NCBI GenBank assembly: GCA_964440545.1
Contig: CAYTSO010000003.1
Span: forward strand, 35,184-99,183
Direction of reading: 5' to 3'
DNA: 64,000 nucleotides
Origin: an uncultured Candidatus Saccharibacteria bacterium
GTDB lineage: Bacteria > Patescibacteriota > Minisyncoccia > Phycocordibacterales > UBA9973
Below, piece after piece: positions 6,615-63,967 of this stretch; the first letter of the stretch is position 1; each line of letters opens with the position of its first letter. Under the pieces are notes generated by a model. The model had not been told where the DNA came from. It ran no database searches and saw only the letters and a program-made list of their open reading frames with translations. The translations under genes were made by a program, and so were the position numbers.

Positions 6615-7142
6615 ATGCGAAAACACAATTTGGCTTTTATAGATATTGAATTAACAGGGCTTGATTTAATTAAACATGAAATAATTGAAATTGGTTGTAT
6701 TATAACCAAGCCAAATTTTGAGGTAGTTGAGGAATTCGAAATAAAAATAAAACCTGAAAGAATTGAGGATGCCGATCCAACCTCTCTAAAAATAAATCAT
6801 TATGATGAAGAAAAATGGAAAGGCGCCTATTCTTTGAAGGAAGCGCTTGAATTTTTTTCTGAAAAAGTCTGTGATTGTATAATGATCGGACACAATGTCG
6901 CTTTTGATTCTGGTTTCCTGGAATATGCTTTTTCCAAGACCGGAATTAAAAATACCATGCATTACCATAAATTAGATACGATTTCTGTCGCCTGGGCTAA
7001 GTTGCACCAAAAGCCAGGCATTGAACATTTTTCCTTACGTGACCTATGTTTGCATTTTGATATAAAAAACGAAAATGCACACACCGCTCTTTCTGATGCT
7101 CGAGCAACTTTCGAGCTTTACAAAAAATTGATGGAATTGTAA
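6615..7142 (+). CDS. DEDDh 3'-5' exonuclease (DnaQ/epsilon-like)
   Basis: FIDIELTGLD (Exo I), HNVAFDSGFL (Exo II) and HTALSDARAT (Exo III) motifs. Confidence 0.75.
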   Translation: MRKHNLAFIDIELTGLDLIKHEIIEIGCIITKPNFEVVEEFEIKIKPERIEDADPTSLKINHYDEEKWKGAYSLKEALEFFSEKVCDCIMIGHNVAFDSGFLEYAFSKTGIKNTMHYHKLDTISVAWAKLHQKPGIEHFSLRDLCLHFDIKNENAHTALSDARATFELYKKLMEL

Positions 7143-7151
7143 GTTTAACCT

Positions 7152-8300
7152 ATGAGAAAAAAAATTGTTAACGGCGAGCGCAGTCGAACTGTTTTTGTGG
7201 GACTTTCTGGGGGCGTTGATTCCGCAGTTTCAGCGGCATTGTTGAAAAAACAAGGATACGAAGTGGTAGGGGTCTTTATCAAAACCTGGCATCCGGATTT
7301 TTTGGTTTGCAATGAAGAAGAAGAACGCCTTGATGCTATGCGCGTCGCGGCTCATTTAGATATTCCTTTTTTAACTTTTAATCTTAGAGATGTTTACAAA
7401 AAAGAAGTAGCGGACTACATGATTCGCGAATACAAAGCAGGCAGAACCCCCAATCCAGACGTAATGTGCAACAAAGAAGTTAAATTTGGCGCATTTCTAA
7501 AAAAGGCAATTTTCATGGGTGCAGATTTTGTAGCCACGGGGCATTATGCGATTGACAGCTCCGCAAAAACTGCTTTTTTTCAGGTCCTCGGTTCTCCTCG
7601 CTTTGCTCGGCCAGACCATTCAAAAAAGCAATTTTTGCTTCGCGGAGCTGATGTCGGCAAAGATCAAAGTTATTTTTTATGGACCTTAACACAAAAACAA
7701 CTAAATAAAATTTTATTTCCAATAGGCAATCTCAAAAAAACAGAAGTGCGGAAACTGGCAAAAAAATTTAAATTACCCGTCGCAGAGAAAAAAGACAGTC
7801 AGGGTATTTGTTTTTTGGGTGAAGTAGACTTAAAAGAATTTTTAAAGCATTACATAAAAACAAAGAGGGGAAAGGTGCTTACAGAAACTGGAAAAGAAGT
7901 TGGTTTTCACAATGGTGTTGCCTTTCATACCTTGGGAGAAAGACATGGTTTTACAATTACCAAAAAAAATCCCACAGACGGACCGCATTACATAATTGGC
8001 AAGGATTTTAAAAAAAACATCTTGATTGTGTCACAAAATAAAAACTATTTCAAAGCCTCTTTTGCAGATAGTTTTTGTTTAAGTTTAGAAAAAGTAAATT
8101 GGATTTGTGATGTTCCCAAAGAAAATGAGAACTATGTTGCCCAAATTCGTTATCATGGTGAGTTTTTGTCATGCAAGATAAAGATAAATTCTAAAACAAA
8201 GGCGCAAGTGTTTTTTAAAAAACCAATTTTGGTTGCCTCTGGGCAGTCTGTAGTTTTGTACGATAAAAATGTTTGTTTGGGTGGCGGAATAGTAGTATAA
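7152..8300 (+). CDS. mnmA: tRNA-specific 2-thiouridylase MnmA
   Basis: LSGGVDSAV PP-loop and the GRTPNPDVMCNKEVKF catalytic Cys region. 382-aa length fits MnmA. Confidence 0.9.
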   Translation: MRKKIVNGERSRTVFVGLSGGVDSAVSAALLKKQGYEVVGVFIKTWHPDFLVCNEEEERLDAMRVAAHLDIPFLTFNLRDVYKKEVADYMIREYKAGRTPNPDVMCNKEVKFGAFLKKAIFMGADFVATGHYAIDSSAKTAFFQVLGSPRFARPDHSKKQFLLRGADVGKDQSYFLWTLTQKQLNKILFPIGNLKKTEVRKLAKKFKLPVAEKKDSQGICFLGEVDLKEFLKHYIKTKRGKVLTETGKEVGFHNGVAFHTLGERHGFTITKKNPTDGPHYIIGKDFKKNILIVSQNKNYFKASFADSFCLSLEKVNWICDVPKENENYVAQIRYHGEFLSCKIKINSKTKAQVFFKKPILVASGQSVVLYDKNVCLGGGIVV

Positions 8301-56116: not shown

Positions 56117-57205
56117 CTATCTTATCATTGTTGCCAGTTCTGGCTCTTTGTTTACTAGCAGGACATTAAACCTCAAATGACCAATTGTTTTCCCTTCTAT
56201 TGTTTTTATATTTATTCGCCACTTCCCTGTTCCTAAATTTGAACGCATAGAATAGGTTCGGAAGCCACCATCCCGTCCACCAATAACCGGCAAATTAATT
56301 ACTTTATCAGTTATCCATTCTTCTTGATTTTCATTGTAATGTTGCCATTCGTGAACAATTGTTGTATCTAGGTTACTAGGAGAGAAAATTGCGCTAAAGG
56401 CATATGTGGGTGTTCCTGGGGCTTTATTAAAATCCGGATAAAGCCTGAAATAGTGCCACCAGCTCTTTTTCTCATAACTAGCAAGATAATTTCCGGTATT
56501 CGTTTTTTGTATAGAATAATAGACACCGGCATCTTTGAGAGAAAGCGGAATAGGTGGAAGGAGATTAGCAAAATATAATAAATTAACCAAAACAAAAATA
56601 CCTACAACTAAGGAGATAACTAATTTTTTACTTTCAGCAAAATTATCTTTTGTAAAGCGGAAGAGAATTATTATAAAAAGACTAATGAATATTAAACTAA
56701 TTAAGCCAGAAAGTAAAAATATTTTTGTGCCAATTTGGTGTAAAATTACCGGTATCAAAAAAATTGCAAAGGCGTAAATTGAAAGAAAGAATAAACTTAT
56801 TTGAAAACTTAATCGAACATAATGCCGTTTCATTGATTCATTGGCGATGAAGGCGAGCAAGAGGATAAAAACAAAAGGCCAGGTTACAAGGATGTCGGCA
56901 CTGCGGAAATAAAAAACCAGATAAGTAGAAAGAATTCCTCCAAAGAAGAACTGCAAAATATTTACATACCAAAAATGAGCTTTTTGCGGATTCTTTTCAT
57001 TTCCTGGTTCAGTGTCGTGCAGGTGGATGAGTAGAATAAAAATACCCACAACTAGTAAGTGTCCAAGAATCCAAATATTTTCCCAGAGGGTGTCCACCCT
57101 CTTTAGGGTGATGGCGTCAAAGACGAAACCAAATATTAGGGAAAATGATGAAATTGGCCGCTCAAAGCGACCATAAAAATTTCGAATTGGTTGTATTAAA
57201 AACAT
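56117..57205 (-). CDS. polytopic membrane protein with ~120-aa C-terminal extracytoplasmic domain, unknown function
   Basis: ATG at 57205 lies 7 nt downstream of a TATAAT hexamer. About eight TM helices. The track ORF extension to 57562 runs through a GC-rich element containing a terminator hairpin and is probably non-coding. Confidence 0.5.
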   Translation of the reverse strand: MFLIQPIRNFYGRFERPISSFSLIFGFVFDAITLKRVDTLWENIWILGHLLVVGIFILLIHLHDTEPGNEKNPQKAHFWYVNILQFFFGGILSTYLVFYFRSADILVTWPFVFILLLAFIANESMKRHYVRLSFQISLFFLSIYAFAIFLIPVILHQIGTKIFLLSGLISLIFISLFIIILFRFTKDNFAESKKLVISLVVGIFVLVNLLYFANLLPPIPLSLKDAGVYYSIQKTNTGNYLASYEKKSWWHYFRLYPDFNKAPGTPTYAFSAIFSPSNLDTTIVHEWQHYNENQEEWITDKVINLPVIGGRDGGFRTYSMRSNLGTGKWRINIKTIEGKTIGHLRFNVLLVNKEPELATMIR

Positions 57206-57249
57206 GGATTGATTATACACTACAAATTTAATAAATTTTTGTAAAATGA

Positions 57250-57600
57250 AAGGGGGCCCGAAGGCCCCCGTGGTGATGGTTTTGCGTGGCTGAGATTCCG
57301 GTGGCCACGCGGTTGATGAGACAGTTGCCCAGCTTACGACGGCCCCAGCGTCGTGCCGGGCGGGTTTGTGGCCCCTACTCGGAGGGGCACGACGGTTGCC
57401 GCTCTTGGCGAGCTTTTGGCCGGCCGTAGCGGCCTTGACGGCGTGGACCCCGGCAGCGGCCAAGGCGGCGAACTTTCCTCCCACCCGAGCTGTGTCCTCG
57501 GTGTAGGGGCAGAACGCGACCTCACAAGCGATTGCCGGAAGGTCCGGGACAAACATGAACAATTCTACCCTCCTTTCCTTTGAATTAAAAAATGTACGTT
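57250..57600 (-). other. unclassified GC-rich (about 60-65%) structured element, probably a minus-strand transcript from a promoter at 57610..57638 to a terminator at 57254..57271
   Basis: Sharp GC jump in a roughly 35% GC genome. Multiple hairpins (CCGGACCTTCCGG, ACGACG-N7-CGTCGT, CGTGGC-N13-GCCACG). Promoter and terminator flank it. Confidence 0.4.
57254..57271 (-). terminator. intrinsic terminator (minus strand)
   Basis: GGGGGCC-UUCG-GGCCCCC followed by UUUCAUUUU on the minus strand. Confidence 0.5.
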
Positions 57601-57683: not shown

Positions 57684-58054
57684 ACTAACTGCGTCCTGGT
57701 AGACTAGTTTTGAAAAGCAGGACGACCGATGTCGTAGCAGAGGAATGAAGAAAGGGGGTTACGACGCCCACGCATGTGGGTTAAAACAGATGAGCAAACC
57801 AAATAAAATATACCACTTATTAATTTTTTTTGCAATATCCTGCTGCGATGCTTAGGCTAGTACCACTAGAGGTGAGCTGTCGTAAGGGTATTCTAGCATT
57901 TTTTCGTCTAGTGAAATGACGGCTTTGGGTCAATATATGAAATGTTGTTTTTCCTTGTTTTACTGTGAAATTTACTGTGATGACTTTGGTCTGGTACCGG
58001 ACAAAAAATTATCGCGCGCTATACTAAAAACATCACGATAGATGTGGTGATACT

Positions 58055-58462
58055 ATGTCTAATTTAAATACATTAAAACCTTTTCAATCAGGATTTGATT
58101 CGAGAAGAAATACAAAAGGAAGACCTAAAGGTGTTCGTAATATGAAAACAATTTTGTCTCAAAAATTGATGCAATATGTTGGTGAAGGTAAAAACAAAAC
58201 TCAACTTCAAGATGTTTTGATAAATAGGATTATTGATAAAGCTCTCAAAGGAGATAGGAAAATGATTCAGCTTATTTGGGAATATATGGATGGTAAGCCA
58301 CCAAAATGGAAAGGTGATCCTGTCCTTCAATCAAAAAGATATACGGAAAAGAAGACGGAAATTTCACCAGAAGATGAAGCTAAAATACAAGAATTATTTG
58401 GATCAAGACCAATCAACCCTACCCAAGAATCTCGACCCGATTCCAAGGTGTCTGTAACTTAA
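58055..58462 (+). CDS. hypothetical basic protein (mobile-element associated)
   Basis: 135 aa with N-terminal RRNTKGRPKGVRN. No further motif. Confidence 0.4.
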   Translation: MSNLNTLKPFQSGFDSRRNTKGRPKGVRNMKTILSQKLMQYVGEGKNKTQLQDVLINRIIDKALKGDRKMIQLIWEYMDGKPPKWKGDPVLQSKRYTEKKTEISPEDEAKIQELFGSRPINPTQESRPDSKVSVT

Positions 58463-58644
58463 CTTCCTTTTGAGAAAATGTGTAGAGGGAGTTATCCACT
58501 TAACACAAAGACCCTTTTAATAGGGTCTTTGTTGAGTAGGTGTGTATTTTGATCGCTATCGGGCGTGCAATTCTGGAAAACTGAATTCTGCTGATCGTAT
58601 CAAGTCCTCAAGCTCTATCGACTTTATCACTTTTCTCATTCAAC

Positions 58645-58830
58645 CTAATTTGTTTCATCTACAACAGTTGCGTCCTTAGCATTTAACTTTGTCCACTCGA
58701 TTGAATATTTTGCATCTGTTTTGTTGATGTAACTTTCACTACTCTTTGCAATAATCTTTCCGTTTTTATCAGATTTTAAAATCCAATAAAATTGACCAGA
58801 TATTGTCTTCTGAAGTTTAAATTTTGCCAT
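58645..58830 (-). CDS. YegP-like (DUF1508/UPF0339) small protein
   Basis: MAKFKLQKTISGQFYWILKSDKNGKIIAKSSESYINKTDAKYSIEW matches the YegP repeat pattern (G.F.F.LKA.NGE.IA.SE.Y). Confidence 0.55.
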   Translation of the reverse strand: MAKFKLQKTISGQFYWILKSDKNGKIIAKSSESYINKTDAKYSIEWTKLNAKDATVVDETN

Positions 58831-59026
58831 ACAAAAATAAAATTTAATTTACTAATAATATCGACCTGATAAAGAACGACCTTTCCTTATCATAACTCTT
58901 ATATAAATCGAGGTCAGGTAAATTTTTTCTAAAATTTGTTAATCAAATGTGGATAAGTTTGCCTAGACTTTCGGTTTTTATTCGGTTATAATACAAATGT
59001 AGCAAATTTAAGCATCTATAGCAAAT

Positions 59027-60604
59027 ATGACTAATATCACAAAAAAACAAAAACAAGTTTTTGACTTCATAAACAGCTATAGAGCTGAGAATGGCATTTC
59101 CCCTACCATAGAAGAAATACGAAAAAAACTTAAACTCAAAGCAGTATCTACTATCCACGAACATATTAAATCACTTCAAGACAAAGGGTATCTATCGAAG
59201 AGTGATAATTCTCCAAGAAGTATTGAGCCGACAAAGACAATTCGATCTGTTATTGATATTCCTGTTTTGGGAACTATTGCAGCTGGTCAACCAATCGAAG
59301 CAATAGAAAATTCTCAAGACACAATATCAATAATTAATCCTACGATTAAATCTTCTCAAGGTTATTACGCTTTAAGAGTTGCCGGAGATAGTATGATAGA
59401 AGAAGGTATATTTGATGGAGATATTGTTATCATTAAAAAACAATCAGTCGCGGAAAACGGACAAACTGTAGTTGCCATCATAGACGACAACGAAGCTACC
59501 CTTAAAAAGCTTTATCGCGAAAAATCTCGTTTTAGATTAGAACCAAGAAATCAAAACATGCTACCTTTTTTCAGAAAAGAAGTTGAGGTAAGAGGTGTTG
59601 TTGTTCAAGTAATTAGAAATATCAATAATCAAGAAATAGCAACTGTTTCAAAAAAAACTAAACATGGATTTAAAACCATTGACCTATTTGCAGGTGTAGG
59701 AGGTATCAGACTAGGCTTTGAAAAAGCTGGTTTTGAGACCGTCTTTGCAAATGATTTTGAAAAGCAATGTAAAGAAACATATGATTTAAACTTTCCAACT
59801 TCCAAACTAGTCATTGAAGATATAAGGCAAGTAGGAATTGAAGATTTACCTCAATTTGATTTTCTACTTGGGGGTTTTCCCTGCCAAGCATTTTCTATCG
59901 CAGGATACAGACAAGGTTTCAAAGATGAAAAAGGGCGTGGAAACTTATTTTTTGATATTGCCAGGATTATCGACGCAAGAAAGCCGGCTGGATTTCTATT
60001 AGAAAACGTAAAAAATCTAAAGAGCCACGATGGCGGTAAGACCTTCAAAATAATTGAACAAACATTAACAGATCTTGGATATCACATTAAAACCAAAGTA
60101 TTAAACAGTATGGAATATGGAAATATTCCCCAAAACAGAGAGCGTATCTACATAGTGGGCTTTAGAGATAAAAACTATACGGATAAATTTGAATTTCCTG
60201 ACCCAATAAAATTGAATGTTAAAATTACTGATTTACTCGAAAAGAATGTTCCAGAGAAATATTATTACAATGGTAAACCTCTTTTTGAAAAATTAAAAGA
60301 TTTTGTAAAAGAAGAAGGAAAAGTTTATCAGTGGCGAAGACAATATGTGAGAGAAAACAAGAAAGGTGTATGTCCTACCCTTACTGCAAACATGGGCATG
60401 GGCGGACACAACGTTCCTATCATAAAAGACAAAAAAGGTATAAGAAAGTTAACTCCTTTAGAGTGTTTTAGAATTCAGGGATTTCCTAAAAATTATACGT
60501 TACCTAAAATAGCCGACTCTGCTTTATATAAACAAGCTGGAAACTCTGTTAGTGTACCTGTTATTGAGGCGGTAGCAAAAAGGATGATGGTCGCTATGGA
60601 ATAA
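59027..60604 (+). CDS. fusion protein: full-length LexA-type repressor (HTH + S24 autopeptidase) fused to DNA (cytosine-5)-methyltransferase
   Basis: Residues 1 to about 205: LTKKQKQVFDFI..EEIRKKLKL.STIHEHIKSLQDKGYL (LexA wHTH), Ala-Gly cleavage site in IAAGQPIEA, VAGDSMIEEGI (catalytic Ser), TVVAIIDDNEATLKKL (catalytic Lys). Residues about 215-525: DLFAGVGG (motif I), GGFPCQAFS (IV), LLENVKNL (VI), QNRERIYIVG (VIII), QAGNSVSVPV (X). Single uninterrupted ORF. Confidence 0.8.
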   Translation: MTNITKKQKQVFDFINSYRAENGISPTIEEIRKKLKLKAVSTIHEHIKSLQDKGYLSKSDNSPRSIEPTKTIRSVIDIPVLGTIAAGQPIEAIENSQDTISIINPTIKSSQGYYALRVAGDSMIEEGIFDGDIVIIKKQSVAENGQTVVAIIDDNEATLKKLYREKSRFRLEPRNQNMLPFFRKEVEVRGVVVQVIRNINNQEIATVSKKTKHGFKTIDLFAGVGGIRLGFEKAGFETVFANDFEKQCKETYDLNFPTSKLVIEDIRQVGIEDLPQFDFLLGGFPCQAFSIAGYRQGFKDEKGRGNLFFDIARIIDARKPAGFLLENVKNLKSHDGGKTFKIIEQTLTDLGYHIKTKVLNSMEYGNIPQNRERIYIVGFRDKNYTDKFEFPDPIKLNVKITDLLEKNVPEKYYYNGKPLFEKLKDFVKEEGKVYQWRRQYVRENKKGVCPTLTANMGMGGHNVPIIKDKKGIRKLTPLECFRIQGFPKNYTLPKIADSALYKQAGNSVSVPVIEAVAKRMMVAME

Positions 60605-60605
60605 G

Positions 60606-61649
60606 TTATTTGTTGTAAACTTTATCAAAAGCCTTAATCATTTTGTCTGTAGAATCTTTTGCAAATACTTCAAAAGAATTTTTCACCGCCAAGTTCTCAT
60701 CCCAGTTTGAACTTCTATCAAATTGAGCTAACTCAATTTTAATAAAACCTGGCAACATTTTCTGATTATTAATTGATAGTGTTTTATCTGTCTTCAAGAA
60801 TACTGACCCTTTATTTTCTTTTACAATAAAGGTGCTTTTTGTATCGCCCTCTATAGAAATTGGTAAATAAATATCACTGCCATTTTCATATATAAATTTA
60901 CTATTTAAAAATTTTATCTTTTTTGGATCTTGTGGCTTAGTAACTTTATCTACATTAGAAACACTCTTCACATATCTTGGGCTAACTTTCGGTTTACAAG
61001 AAACTGTATTCTCTAAAATTTGATCTTTTGTATAAGTACCAATTAATCTGAAGCTACCCACAATCTCAGCCTTCTCAGGTTTAACTGGAGAAATAATACT
61101 AGAATTTTTATCTGATTTTATAAATATAGGATCCGCTTTAAGTAACTCAGCATTTTTTTCATTAAAAACTTCATCTTCAAATATCATAGTTAAATAATCA
61201 GGAGAAAGGTCCGATTCTACAAAAACATAATAATCATCAATCATTTGAGGTTGTCTAATGCCTAAAAGATATTGATCTTTACGTAAAGCTTTTACTTCAA
61301 CTCTTGGACTATTACCGACCGTTTCCCATCGTCCATCATTATACTGAACAAAAGGAATAGTCTTTTTGTTATCTTTGATACCTATAATATCTGGTGCATT
61401 CTTTTCAGACTCATTGTTATATAGAAAATAGTCTGGCACCGCTTTATATGGTTTGTCTTGTAAAAGACTATCAAAAACCGCTGTCTCAGCTAATTTATTT
61501 AACCATCTTTCAATAAAACCACCGACAAGATCTCTCTTTGAAGATGTTCCTTGCATGTGTAAAGAATCAGAACTATATTTCATTAATATAAAATATATAG
61601 TTCTTATTAACTCCTCTTTTGTTATTTCGATTTTTGGATATTTACTCAC
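60606..61649 (-). CDS. candidate type II restriction endonuclease (PD-(D/E)xK) partner of the methyltransferase
   Basis: Convergent, 1-nt gap to the MTase gene. Possible ..APDIIGIK..(27)..RVEVKALRK PD...E.K motif. No other homology recognised. Confidence 0.35.
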   Translation of the reverse strand: MSKYPKIEITKEELIRTIYFILMKYSSDSLHMQGTSSKRDLVGGFIERWLNKLAETAVFDSLLQDKPYKAVPDYFLYNNESEKNAPDIIGIKDNKKTIPFVQYNDGRWETVGNSPRVEVKALRKDQYLLGIRQPQMIDDYYVFVESDLSPDYLTMIFEDEVFNEKNAELLKADPIFIKSDKNSSIISPVKPEKAEIVGSFRLIGTYTKDQILENTVSCKPKVSPRYVKSVSNVDKVTKPQDPKKIKFLNSKFIYENGSDIYLPISIEGDTKSTFIVKENKGSVFLKTDKTLSINNQKMLPGFIKIELAQFDRSSNWDENLAVKNSFEVFAKDSTDKMIKAFDKVYNK

Positions 61650-61749
61650 AATATCTCAAGAATATCTGAAAATTGACTAAAAATCAATTTTACTGCATGG
61701 AATATAGACTCATCTGGACTTCGTCCCTCCATCCGGTATGTTCGTGTAT

Positions 61750-63066
61750 ATGGAGAATATAGCCATACAGAATCAATATTTTCACACCAACATCACGGAA
61801 CAGGAACCTCTCAGATATTGTTTATATGCTCGAAAATCAAGTGAGGCAGAAGAAAAACAAGCTCTTTCTATAGATTCACAAATCAAAGAAATGCTCTTGA
61901 TTGCTCAAAGAGAAAATCTGAATATTGTTGATATGTATCGAGAATCACATTCAGCAAAAGATTGTGGGCAAAGACCTGTATTCAATCAATTGTTGACTGA
62001 TATTCGCGAAGGTAAATTTAATGGAATATTAGTGTGGCATCCTGACAGACTTTCAAGAAATGCTGGGGACTTGGGAGCCGTTGTAGATTTACTCGATCAA
62101 AAGAAACTTATAGAGATCCGAACATACAGTCAAAAATTTACTAACAATCCGAATGAAAAGTTTCTTCTGATGATTCTTGGTTCGCAAGCAAAACTTGAAA
62201 ATGATAACAAGAGTATTAATGTGAAGCGTGGGCTAAAAACAAAATGCGAGATGGGGCTATGGCCAAGTGTTGCACCAACCGGATATTTAAATTCAAAAAA
62301 TAAAGATCAAAAAGGAACTGTATTCATTGACCCTGTACGAGCACCAATTATTAAACAAATGTTTGAGAAGGTATCTAATGAGGGTTGGAGTGGTAGAAAA
62401 TTATTTAGATGGTTAAAAGATATACGATTTGTAACAAGAACAGGAAAATATCTAACACTGAGTAATGTATATGTAATATTGAATAATCATTTTTATTATG
62501 GATCTTTTGAATATCCAAAGAATAGTGGTCGATGGTTTCAAGGTAAACACGTGCCAATAATTTCAAAAGATTTATTTGATGCAGTACAAAAGCATTTAAA
62601 ACTACAGATCAAAGTCCATTCCAAAAATAAGGAATTTGCTTTCACTAAACTTCTCTCTTGTGGAGTATGTGGCTCTGGTGTTACCGCTCAAGAAAAATAC
62701 AAAAACCTCAAAGATGGATCAATAAACAAATATATTTATTACGGTTGTACAAGAGCAAAAGATATTAATTGCAAAGAAGGATATATTGAAGAAAAAGTTT
62801 TGATTGCACAATTACTTGTAATTATTGATCGAATTGACTTAGACAGGTCAGGTATAAAGAAAAAACTAGAAGCAGAAATTGAGCGTCACAAAAAATTCCA
62901 CTCGGGTATTATGGGAAAATCTGAGGAGGAATATCATGCAAAAGATGCAGATATCAGGAACTACGCAAAATACTTATTGAATGAAGGATCGATGTTTGAG
63001 AAGAGAGATTTGTTGACGTGCTTGAAAAGTAAGATAAGTTTGAAGGATAAAAAAATTATTTTGTAA
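61750..63066 (+). CDS. large serine recombinase (resolvase/invertase catalytic domain + recombinase domain + zinc ribbon)
   Basis: YARKSSEAEEKQALSIDSQ (catalytic Ser in Y-x-R-x-S-S), a large recombinase domain, and CGVCGS...YYGCTRAK zinc ribbon. The track ORF starts 61738. ATG at 61750 is equally plausible. Confidence 0.8.
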   Translation: MENIAIQNQYFHTNITEQEPLRYCLYARKSSEAEEKQALSIDSQIKEMLLIAQRENLNIVDMYRESHSAKDCGQRPVFNQLLTDIREGKFNGILVWHPDRLSRNAGDLGAVVDLLDQKKLIEIRTYSQKFTNNPNEKFLLMILGSQAKLENDNKSINVKRGLKTKCEMGLWPSVAPTGYLNSKNKDQKGTVFIDPVRAPIIKQMFEKVSNEGWSGRKLFRWLKDIRFVTRTGKYLTLSNVYVILNNHFYYGSFEYPKNSGRWFQGKHVPIISKDLFDAVQKHLKLQIKVHSKNKEFAFTKLLSCGVCGSGVTAQEKYKNLKDGSINKYIYYGCTRAKDINCKEGYIEEKVLIAQLLVIIDRIDLDRSGIKKKLEAEIERHKKFHSGIMGKSEEEYHAKDADIRNYAKYLLNEGSMFEKRDLLTCLKSKISLKDKKIIL

Positions 63067-63967
63067 CCGCAACCTGTTGAATAACAGCTGATCCTTTATG
63101 GTTTTCAACTATTTTTGAAGCAAATGTACTACCGAGAGTATGCATCATTGCGTGATGAACAGATAAAACATTTTCTTGAAGAACTTGGTCTTCTTCCAAT
63201 TTTTCAACGATTAATCCTATTTCAACACATTTTGAATAAGATAGGTGTCTTCCATGAGAAAGACTTACAGAATGGTCCCCGAGTTCTTTAATAATTTTAT
63301 CAATCGTTGCTTTCTTTTCATGAGCATTTGTAACATTAGAAAACATTCTTATTCCGAGCTTTTCTCTAGCAATATCTTCTGCCCACTTTAATGCTTGCTG
63401 ACACTCTCCAACAAGTGTAGGTGTATATTTTGCAATTATAGGTTGCCAAACAAAAACCTTACTCTGATCAGCCTTGATTTCTTCATGAGCTTTTTTAAAT
63501 TCTTCTAAAACTCCATGGGCTGCAACCATACCATAAGGCGTATTAAACTGTGGATCAATAGGACCAAGGCTAGAATGTTTCCCCATTAAAATTTTATTTG
63601 ATGAACAAGCAATCATTGTTCCACCAGACATTGCTAATTGAGGAACAATTACGCGAATATCTTCAAACATAGTCATTAAATAATCAATTATTGATTCTGT
63701 TGCAGCAATATCACCACCAGGAGTATGAAGAATGAGATCAAGTCCCTTGGTTCGATCTAAACCTTTAATGGTTGCCATGAAAGCATTCTTATCTAAGTCG
63801 TTTATACCCAAATTGGGAGCACCATTCTTTTGCAACCAACCACTATAGTAAGCAATCACATTTCTTTTGGTATAATTTTGAAGACGTTTCAAATACCTCC
63901 TTCGAATACCATCGAAGTCACCTCTGCTTTTTTGTAATTCATTTAATATGCCTGTCCAGTCTGCCAT
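63056..63967 (-). CDS. ClpP/crotonase-fold serine protease, S49/SDH-like family
   Basis: LILHTPGGDIAATESIIDYL and PQLAMSGGTMIACSSNKILMGKHSSLGPIDPQ resemble the serine dehydrogenase proteinase / SppA-like active-site region. Confidence 0.55.
   Translation of the reverse strand: MADWTGILNELQKSRGDFDGIRRRYLKRLQNYTKRNVIAYYSGWLQKNGAPNLGINDLDKNAFMATIKGLDRTKGLDLILHTPGGDIAATESIIDYLMTMFEDIRVIVPQLAMSGGTMIACSSNKILMGKHSSLGPIDPQFNTPYGMVAAHGVLEEFKKAHEEIKADQSKVFVWQPIIAKYTPTLVGECQQALKWAEDIAREKLGIRMFSNVTNAHEKKATIDKIIKELGDHSVSLSHGRHLSYSKCVEIGLIVEKLEEDQVLQENVLSVHHAMMHTLGSTFASKIVENHKGSAVIQQVAVTK

Follow-up and report, generated by a model that had tools for sequence, protein, structure and literature searches.

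LexA-DNA methyltransferase fusions in predicted Type II restriction-modification cassettes of Patescibacteria

What would a repressor of the SOS response do at the front end of a DNA methyltransferase? The question is raised by one gene in a 64-kb stretch of DNA (64,000 nucleotides, hereafter the window) from an uncultured Candidatus Saccharibacteria bacterium (contig CAYTSO010000003.1 of assembly GCA_964440545.1). Reading the sequence alone, the original prediction held that this gene encodes a complete LexA joined in frame to a complete Dcm-type C5-cytosine methyltransferase, as part of a restriction-modification (RM) system wired to RecA*/SOS signalling. Coordinates below are positions in the window, and the loci of relatives are labelled L001-L168. 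The predicted architecture was confirmed and its interpretation partly supported. On comparative sequence grounds the finding is more general than first read, concerning a phylum-wide family that spans several methyltransferase classes, and the DNA-binding step is mechanistically better supported; the wiring to RecA*/SOS is inferred from conserved catalytic residues.

The fusion gene lies at 59027..60604 on the plus strand and consists of one ATG-to-TAA open reading frame (ORF) of 525 aa with zero frameshifts or stops. It starts with a LexA winged helix-turn-helix (HTH) DNA-binding domain (residues 1-64, 59027..59218; Pfam PF01726 LexA_DNA_bind, 7e-16), within which the recognition helix AVSTIHEHIKSL with Glu45 was located by alignment to LexA structures and by the co-variation described below. 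An S24 autopeptidase and dimerisation domain follows (residues 79-193, 59261..59605; PF00717 Peptidase_S24, 7.7e-29), with the predicted self-cleavage bond Ala86-Gly87 encoded at 59282..59287 and the codons of Ser122 and Lys160 at 59390-59392 and 59504-59506. Beyond the inter-domain linker (residues 200-214, 59624..59668) comes the C5-cytosine DNA methyltransferase domain (residues 215-520, 59669..60586; PF00145 DNA_methylase, 2.3e-93), which covers positions 1-322 of the 324-position profile and has its catalytic Cys286 codon at 59882-59884. All three Pfam domains score far over their curated cut-offs. In NCBIfam, the lexA equivalog profile TIGR00498 scored 181.7 bits on residues 1-199, against a cut-off of 111, and the dcm profile TIGR00675 scored 341 bits on the remainder.

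Structural alignments gave the same picture. Residues 3-198 align end to end with the LexA structures 3k2z, 1jhh and 3jso (Thermotoga, E. coli and others), and M.HhaI, the closest solved relative, aligns with residues 209-518 (2.8e-61). The LexA motifs IAAGQPIEA (84-92), GDSM (120-123) and EATLKKL (156-162) and the methyltransferase motifs in canonical order (I DLFAGVGG, IV GFPCQAFS, VI ENVKNL, VIII QNRERIY, X GNSVSVPV) match the solved LexA structures and M.HhaI, respectively, residue for residue. Thus, judged by sequence, the gene encodes a full LexA and a full C5 methyltransferase in one chain, as had been predicted from the motifs.

The fusion is widespread in Patescibacteria, occurring in hundreds of species. 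At least 120 clusters were retrieved from a collection of 5.8 billion proteins, and the best 120 share the three domains, a length of about 525 aa and 80-94% identity; their source bins were Taylor-, Moran-, Yanofsky-, Parcu- and Paceibacteria, and their database names were either 'transcriptional repressor LexA' or 'cytosine-specific methyltransferase'. When one genome per GTDB species was scanned, at least 538 species genomes had a relative; the best 80 matched at 71-84% identity over the full length and came from many Patescibacteria lineages. The ORF ran unbroken through each of the 81 related loci available at full length (contig ends truncate two more), and Ala86-Gly87, Ser122, Lys160 and Cys286 were invariant in 81 of the 81 aligned C5 fusions, so that the nucleophile and general base, whose loss by mutation had been named as a possible objection, are both intact. 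The methyltransferase is the most conserved part of the protein and the linker, predicted correctly at about 15 aa, the least, with a mean top-residue frequency of 0.49 and zero invariant positions in the 81-sequence alignment.

An assembly or gene-calling artefact joining neighbouring lexA and dcm genes is a general possibility in metagenome assemblies, and nothing further speaks for it. We give it next to no probability and regard it as ruled out, because the same continuous fusion recurs in all these loci, clusters and species genomes, in independent assemblies from many studies, and because the linker varies in sequence across the 81 loci yet never holds a stop. A phage origin was also rejected: a scan of IMG/VR returned the methylase half only, at 63% identity at best and without the LexA fusion. 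That best match lies on a 35-kb viral contig (L084), and methylase-half homologues of about 49% identity occur on giant-virus contigs (IMG/VR GVMAG, L085-L088); the LexA part is absent from all of these.

The fusion gene is followed, tail to tail, by a convergent gene on the minus strand (60606..61649) for a 347-aa protein that predicted fold and motif identify as a PD-(D/E)XK nuclease, presumably the restriction endonuclease. It gave zero profile matches and falls outside all the named restriction endonuclease families found. Its own family comprises 63 clusters with invariant P86-D87 and E118-x-K120, and its predicted structure (predicted local distance difference test score, pLDDT, 91) had as top matches the PD-(D/E)XK enzymes NhoI (a restriction endonuclease), D212, Hjc, I-Ssp6803I, DpnI and PvuII. 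Of the 83 listed loci, 75 have a convergent ORF at most 400 nt from the fusion stop, most of the others ending at a contig edge, and in nearly all loci the two stop codons overlap or sit no more than about 10 nt apart, which leaves no space for a terminator between the genes. The partner ORFs of related loci belong to at least eight unrelated families, including the Bsp6I type (RE_Bsp6I, 26 loci), an NgoFVII-like family, PDDEXK_5 (PD-(D/E)XK_5) and another PADLOC REase_II family. Since the convergent partner is a PD-(D/E)XK enzyme and known restriction endonuclease families fill the same slot elsewhere, the sequence data identify the fusion gene as the methylase gene (M) of a Type II RM cassette, and the predicted membership in an RM system stands.

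At least eight nuclease families thus share one tail-to-tail slot (L004-L083) beside a methylase kept at 71-84% identity. So many families at one junction imply repeated exchange of isospecific restriction enzymes, and on this sequence evidence the nuclease next to the fusion has repeatedly been exchanged. Homologues of the window's nuclease with 46-76% identity (P0132 and P0177) carry the NCBI labels of Thermoproteota and Nanoarchaeota archaeon bins, which suggests either cross-domain transfer or mis-binning.

The partner enzymes also point to a target. Bsp6IM is a 5-methylcytosine (m5C) methylase acting at GCNGC (PMC9465063), and NgoFVII recognizes GCSGC (PMC4081073). In 696 kb of host DNA flanking 80 fusions, GCNGC was the most under-represented of 96 palindromes, with an observed-to-expected ratio (O/E) of 0.57 (GCSGC 0.61, GCWGC 0.54). 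The depletion is weak in the window alone (O/E 0.73-0.74) and becomes convincing once the 80 loci are pooled. Because Bsp6I- and NgoFVII-type partners and the depletion in the host flanks agree, the methylase probably modifies GCNGC to give m5C. A GCGC specificity like that of M.HhaI, the closest solved homologue, was not supported, as GCGC is undepleted in the same flanks (O/E 1.02). The 5.7-kb island region 57843-63518 has one GCNGC site, at 59279, within the Ala-Ala-Gly codons of the cleavage site of the fusion; this paucity is statistically non-significant when the low guanine-plus-cytosine (GC) content of the region is considered.

How might the LexA part act on such a cassette? The original prediction had proposed the whole interval 58831..59026 upstream of the gene as its binding region. 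A conserved candidate operator does exist there, confined to 58970..58985 and located after a DnaA-box-like 9-mer. The best promoter-like site of the region, a sigma-70-type promoter on the plus strand with 10 of 12 matches (58964..58992), consists of a -35 element TAGACT at 58964-58969, a 17-nt spacer and a -10 element TATAAT at 58987-58992. This spacer is filled by the candidate operator, a TTCGG unit repeated once in direct orientation with a period of 11 bp (TTCGGTTTTTATTCGG). Upstream of it, on the plus strand at 58948..58956, lies the exact 9-mer TGTGGATAA, which is the DnaA-box consensus TTATCCACA read on the opposite strand.

From about 80 nt ahead of the ATG, at the DnaA-box-like element, the loci abruptly become similar, and the conserved block then reads TGTGGATAAC, about 6 nt, a -35-like TTGnCT, TTCGGTTTnTnTTCGGT, TATAAT and a short leader. 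The position of the promoter is conserved across 70 distinct aligned promoters, in which the two TTCGG units are the most invariant positions of the block. The operator pattern has one exact match in the window, at the fusion promoter. In its general form, TTCG[GA]-N6-TTCG[GA], it is shared by 75 of 81 fusion promoters, in most cases 56 nt ahead of the ATG, against 11 occurrences elsewhere in 835 kb. No copy was found at nuclease promoters of the loci searched (835 kb), and visual inspection of the promoter showed no palindromic LexA box of the GAAC-N4-GTTC type, the conserved element being a direct repeat.

The exact 9-mer TGTGGATAA has two copies in the window and is found upstream in 45 of 80 C5-fusion promoters and 36 of 57 promoters of N6/N4 fusions (introduced below), mostly 11 or 21-23 nt before the first repeat. 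It keeps its place beside the repeats even in inverted blocks (L060, L129, L158, L168), and it is unchanged when the recognition helix changes; therefore a host factor such as DnaA may bind it.

A search with the LexA half alone against 1.84 billion cluster representatives gave as nearest relatives mostly proteins of 280-890 aa, at 45-65% identity, with the LexA module at the N-terminus. Among the 52 nearest long relatives with a C-terminal methyltransferase, this domain was of the N6_N4_Mtase type in 31, the Eco57I type in seven, the D12 (Dam-like) type in five, N6_Mtase in five and C5 DNA_methylase in three, and Ala-Gly, Ser and Lys were retained in 52 of 52. The same LexA clade has, by these assignments, been fused to at least five DNA methyltransferase classes, so the module is portable, and the fusion in the window, first read as a lone architecture, is one member of a larger set. 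In a metagenome scan directed at one group, the beta-class amino-methyltransferases (N6/N4), at least 519 loci with such a LexA fusion were found. Their promoters have the same layout, including TGTGGATAAC, with other repeat units, and their downstream genes are convergent nucleases of several families, TaqI-like and HNH/EndoVII-type among them.

These additional fusions allowed the repeat unit to be compared with the recognition helix. The set comprised 137 distinct promoter/protein pairs (C5 and N6/N4), 131 of them with a readable helix and repeat pair. In every one of these 131 pairs, the final base of the repeat unit can be told from residue 45, which two histidines flank in the recognition helix: Glu or Gln goes with TTCGG (76 pure cases and seven with one variant unit), and Phe, His or Tyr with TTCTA or TTCGA (48 of 48). 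The rule crosses methyltransferase classes, C5 fusions with His having TTCGA and N6/N4 fusions with Glu or Gln having TTCGG. Position 45 lines up with a base-contacting Glu of E. coli LexA (3JSO structure). Because the repeat unit tracks the recognition-helix residue, there is strong comparative evidence that the fused LexA domain reads the promoter repeats and that the gene is autoregulated.

We favour, with somewhat better than even confidence, a model in which the fusion is the autorepressing methylase of a Type II cassette and is derepressed by RecA-triggered self-cleavage. A dimer held together by the S24 domain would place its two winged-HTH domains on the two 11-bp-phased TTCGG repeats in its own promoter spacer, and occupancy of this operator would hold methylase synthesis low, a form of autorepression strongly supported by the comparison above. 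RecA filaments on single-stranded DNA, arising from chromosome damage or self-restriction, would then induce the S24 domain to cut Ala86-Gly87, a step suggested because the catalytic residues are invariant in more than 130 sequences on five enzyme scaffolds. Cleavage would part the DNA-binding domain from the rest, derepress the promoter and give a burst of methylase. The released DNA-binding fragment would end in -IAA, which we take to resemble the latent ClpX degron -VAA of E. coli LexA; the residues before the predicted cut are -IAA in 62 of 81 sequences. More speculatively, since the nuclease gene converges on the methylase gene and directly adjoins its stop, without a terminator, strong methylase transcription might run into it and oppose nuclease expression. 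The methylase might then keep ahead of the nuclease on entry into a new host, and damage might induce restriction alleviation. Self-restriction, through double-strand breaks, could conceivably be the natural trigger, making the cassette a homeostat for the methylase-to-nuclease balance.

Several points weigh against this model. Its steps (DNA binding, self-cleavage, dependence on RecA) and the methylation specificity are predictions, and the co-variation rests on few independent lineages, with roughly four combinations of helix and class. Direct repeats are an unusual target for LexA dimers, whose normal sites are inverted repeats. The AlphaFold model of the whole fusion had a pLDDT of 64, the alignment being shallow and its sequences too similar, so the domain arrangement cannot be read from it. 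The depletion of GCNGC stands without a comparison set of cassette-free Patescibacteria, and the conserved DnaA-box-like element has no role in the proposed mechanism. A search of the window and about 1.3 Mb of flanks for recA, uvrA, uvrB, ssb and Y-family polymerase genes returned none of them, so that a wider regulon is conceivable. The selective logic is also uncertain, as raised methylase during the SOS response could let an infecting phage escape restriction.

The main alternative, which we consider unlikely though worth taking seriously, retains the S24 domain for dimerisation only and makes the fusion a constitutive autorepressing methyltransferase of the SsoII type, unlinked to RecA or damage. 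Autorepression by itself accounts for an operator in the promoter spacer, self-cleavage of the fusion is so far a prediction, and protease-free HTH-methyltransferase fusions are a known precedent (PMC12707154). Mere dimerisation, however, would leave unexplained why Ala-Gly, Ser and Lys are invariant in all 81 C5 fusions and all 52 wider relatives, across five methyltransferase classes, with neighbouring positions varying. S24 repressors past cleaving usually lose their catalytic residues. Cleavage could also control activity rather than synthesis, with the DNA-binding domain tethering or inhibiting the methyltransferase until proteolysis frees the active enzyme. This idea fits all the sequence data and is compatible with the favoured model, a flexible and poorly conserved linker would permit cross-talk between the domains, and binding to the regulatory site inhibits methylation by M.SsoII (PMC6100179). 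A single operator per cassette, on the other hand, could hold few molecules, and its position inside the promoter spacer points to transcriptional control; we judge control of activity improbable.

Slightly less probable still is that the fusion is the master SOS repressor of the organism, controlling recA, uvr and other genes, and happens to bear a methyltransferase. The lexA equivalog score, the absence of a second LexA or S24 ORF from the window and the name 'transcriptional repressor LexA' in the sources would all agree with such a role. Against it, the operator occurs once in the window, at the promoter of the fusion itself, and almost only there in the 835 kb of flanks. The genomic context differs between genomes, with similarity spanning only promoter to stop codon, and relatives from this LexA clade sit on five methyltransferase classes, in an RM cassette each time. 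Moreover, locus L079 has a separate canonical LexA of 214 aa, 1.2 kb away from the fusion.

Returning to the model of an autorepressing, RecA-cleavable methylase, we compared it with known systems. N-terminal-HTH regulatory C5 methyltransferases include M.EcoRII, M.MspI and M.ScrFIA. In M.SsoII and M.Ecl18kI, the N-terminal HTH of the C5 methylase represses the methylase gene by binding in the promoter region of that gene (PMC3978073, PMC6100179, PMC3695355; review PMC12707154). The fusion resembles this type in having a DNA-binding domain attached to the methyltransferase N-terminus by a flexible linker and a candidate site in its own promoter. It differs in that its N-terminal region is non-homologous, the LexA winged HTH plus S24 belonging to another fold family, and comprises a whole LexA with an intact S24 protease instead of a bare HTH of about 70 aa. 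As operator it has paired direct repeats within the promoter spacer, whereas the SsoII type uses a palindrome between divergent promoters; nuclease and methylase genes are convergent, tail to tail, whereas there they are divergent and methylase binding stimulates nuclease transcription; and its LexA module is found on five methyltransferase classes, the SsoII type only on C5. By analogy, the fusion would act like a regulatory methyltransferase of the SsoII/Ecl18kI kind. Methyltransferases with N-terminal HTH extensions had been named as analogues in the original prediction. They are indeed the right known kind, and the fusion is for that reason a variant of a known category, not a new one.

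With the LexA SOS repressors of E. coli, B. subtilis and T. maritima the fusion shares the winged HTH, the Ala-Gly bond, the Ser/Lys dyad and predicted autoregulation, and its operator half-site TTCG is similar to the GTTCG half of the Gram-positive LexA box. Unlike them, it has a 311-aa enzyme at the C-terminus, a direct-repeat operator at its own promoter only in the DNA scanned, and a place in a variable, probably mobile RM cassette. Its conserved operator differs from a palindromic SOS box, and a multi-gene regulon was not found for it in the window plus 835 kb, where SOS genes are absent.

In C-protein RM systems, too, a small DNA-binding regulator times the methylase versus the nuclease, and among the related loci L079 alone carries a C-protein-like XRE HTH ORF, immediately upstream of the gene for its nuclease. 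In the fusion the regulator sits inside the methylase and, if cleavable, would respond to damage, whereas we know of no C protein that responds to DNA damage. The window has no separate C gene, as no such ORF lies between 61649 and 61738. Damage-induced restriction alleviation in Type I systems works through host proteolysis, ClpXP degrading HsdR (PMC12707154). The proposed outcome, less self-restriction during repair, would be alike, but the sensor would here sit in a Type II methylase and act via transcription. As to the Bsp6I/Fnu4HI-type (GCNGC) and NgoFVII-type (GCSGC) systems, their nucleases are the partners in many related loci and GCNGC is depleted in the hosts; the nuclease of the window, however, belongs to none of these families, and the closest solved relative of the methylase is M.HhaI (GCGC).

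The architecture had been thought undescribed, and no published LexA-methyltransferase fusion was found in full-text literature searches, which did not cover a 2017 Patescibacteria SOS-network study. That study, by Sanchez-Osuna, Barbe and Erill (2017, Environ Microbiol 19:3465), reportedly has the SOS network of Patescibacteria as its subject. The word LexA is missing from a 2025 review of RM biology, which gives damage-induced restriction alleviation for Type I only (PMC12707154). The possibility that the fusion is a widespread, already characterised family thus held for its spread and not for its characterisation: apparently the family is present in databases, mis-named and uncharacterised. 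Hundreds of entries called just 'transcriptional repressor LexA' or 'cytosine methyltransferase' are mis-described and could mislead reconstructions of SOS regulons in candidate phyla.

Type II RM systems are dangerous to their host, and sparing of the chromosome during repair is known for Type I only (ClpXP). If the model is true, a Type II methylase is wired directly to the RecA damage signal, and Type II RM would thereby gain its first known case of intrinsic SOS-responsive control, or of restriction alleviation. It would operate in a phylum with tiny genomes and heavy reliance on restriction systems. The family would also display a natural recognition code of the LexA winged helix, being a natural experiment on LexA recognition in which one residue and one base co-vary at a direct-repeat operator. 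Compact, orthogonal, damage-inducible repressor/operator pairs for synthetic biology are a possible use. A broader version of the idea we offer tentatively, our confidence falling somewhat short of even: that methylases with built-in damage sensors occur across a large Patescibacteria family of Type II RM systems, their portable, self-cleaving LexA module, on at least five methyltransferase classes, repressing each cassette by way of phased direct repeats and being reprogrammed via residue 45 alone (Glu/Gln reading G, Phe/His/Tyr reading A), with the DnaA box possibly adding a replication input.

The cassette had also been placed in an apparent mobile island, a reading that is partly supported. 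In its favour, a large serine recombinase gene (61738..63066, plus strand; Pfam Resolvase, Recombinase and Zn_ribbon_recom), a possible mobility gene, lies next to and divergent from the nuclease gene, and the context of the fusion varies between genomes, similar recombinases adjoining it in L001 and housekeeping genes in L003. An inverted-repeat search of the window, on the other hand, found no ends for the island. That the promoter-plus-M unit has spread horizontally is suggested by identities of 71-94% across distinct Patescibacteria classes with unrelated flanks. In 10 of 23 scanned loci the nuclease gene is followed, after about 0.2-2.2 kb, by a tRNA gene (Ser, Glu, Gln or Lys). In three loci, inverted repeats of 70-250 nt, 89-97% complementary, bracket the cassette and one extra gene: L020 (4511-4763/8443-8694) and L027 (3648-3779/8942-9073), both adjoining tRNA-Ser, and L049 (4447-4516/8945-9014). 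These may be recombination or inversion sites; as general cassette ends, terminal inverted repeats were rejected, being seen in these three loci and not in the window. The neighbours of the cassette in the window, DUF5681 (58055-58462), DUF1508 (58645-58830) and an SDH-type ClpP-like serine protease (63056-63967), are of types common in phage or mobile DNA, which fits an island.

In L079 (Moraniibacteriota), the XRE HTH ORF is located at 6636-6917 on the minus strand, directly upstream of a PD-(D/E)XK nuclease gene, and the canonical LexA at 7432-8076 on the same strand. That genome therefore combines two control layers with a pair of LexA paralogs.

Across the whole 64 kb, searches for tRNA, tmRNA and Rfam families (at gathering threshold) came back empty. 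Between 57640 and 57790, in the intergenic DNA separating the island genes from a GC-rich stretch, three successive hairpins were found, one of which resembled a CRISPR repeat model weakly and without significance (RF01344, E 0.64); a repeat array is absent. The GC-rich stretch itself (57150-57600) has about 350 nt at 54-62% GC inside a window of 37% GC and, at 57.15-57.6 kb, gave no Rfam, tRNA or tmRNA match. Read on the minus strand, it contains a good ribosome-binding site and an ATG in frame into a 481-aa membrane-protein ORF (56117..57562), and it ends at a strong hairpin, GGGGGCC-TTCG-GGCCCCC (57253-57270); the fold z-score is -2.8. The stretch may be a foreign insertion, an unrecognised RNA or a chimeric join.

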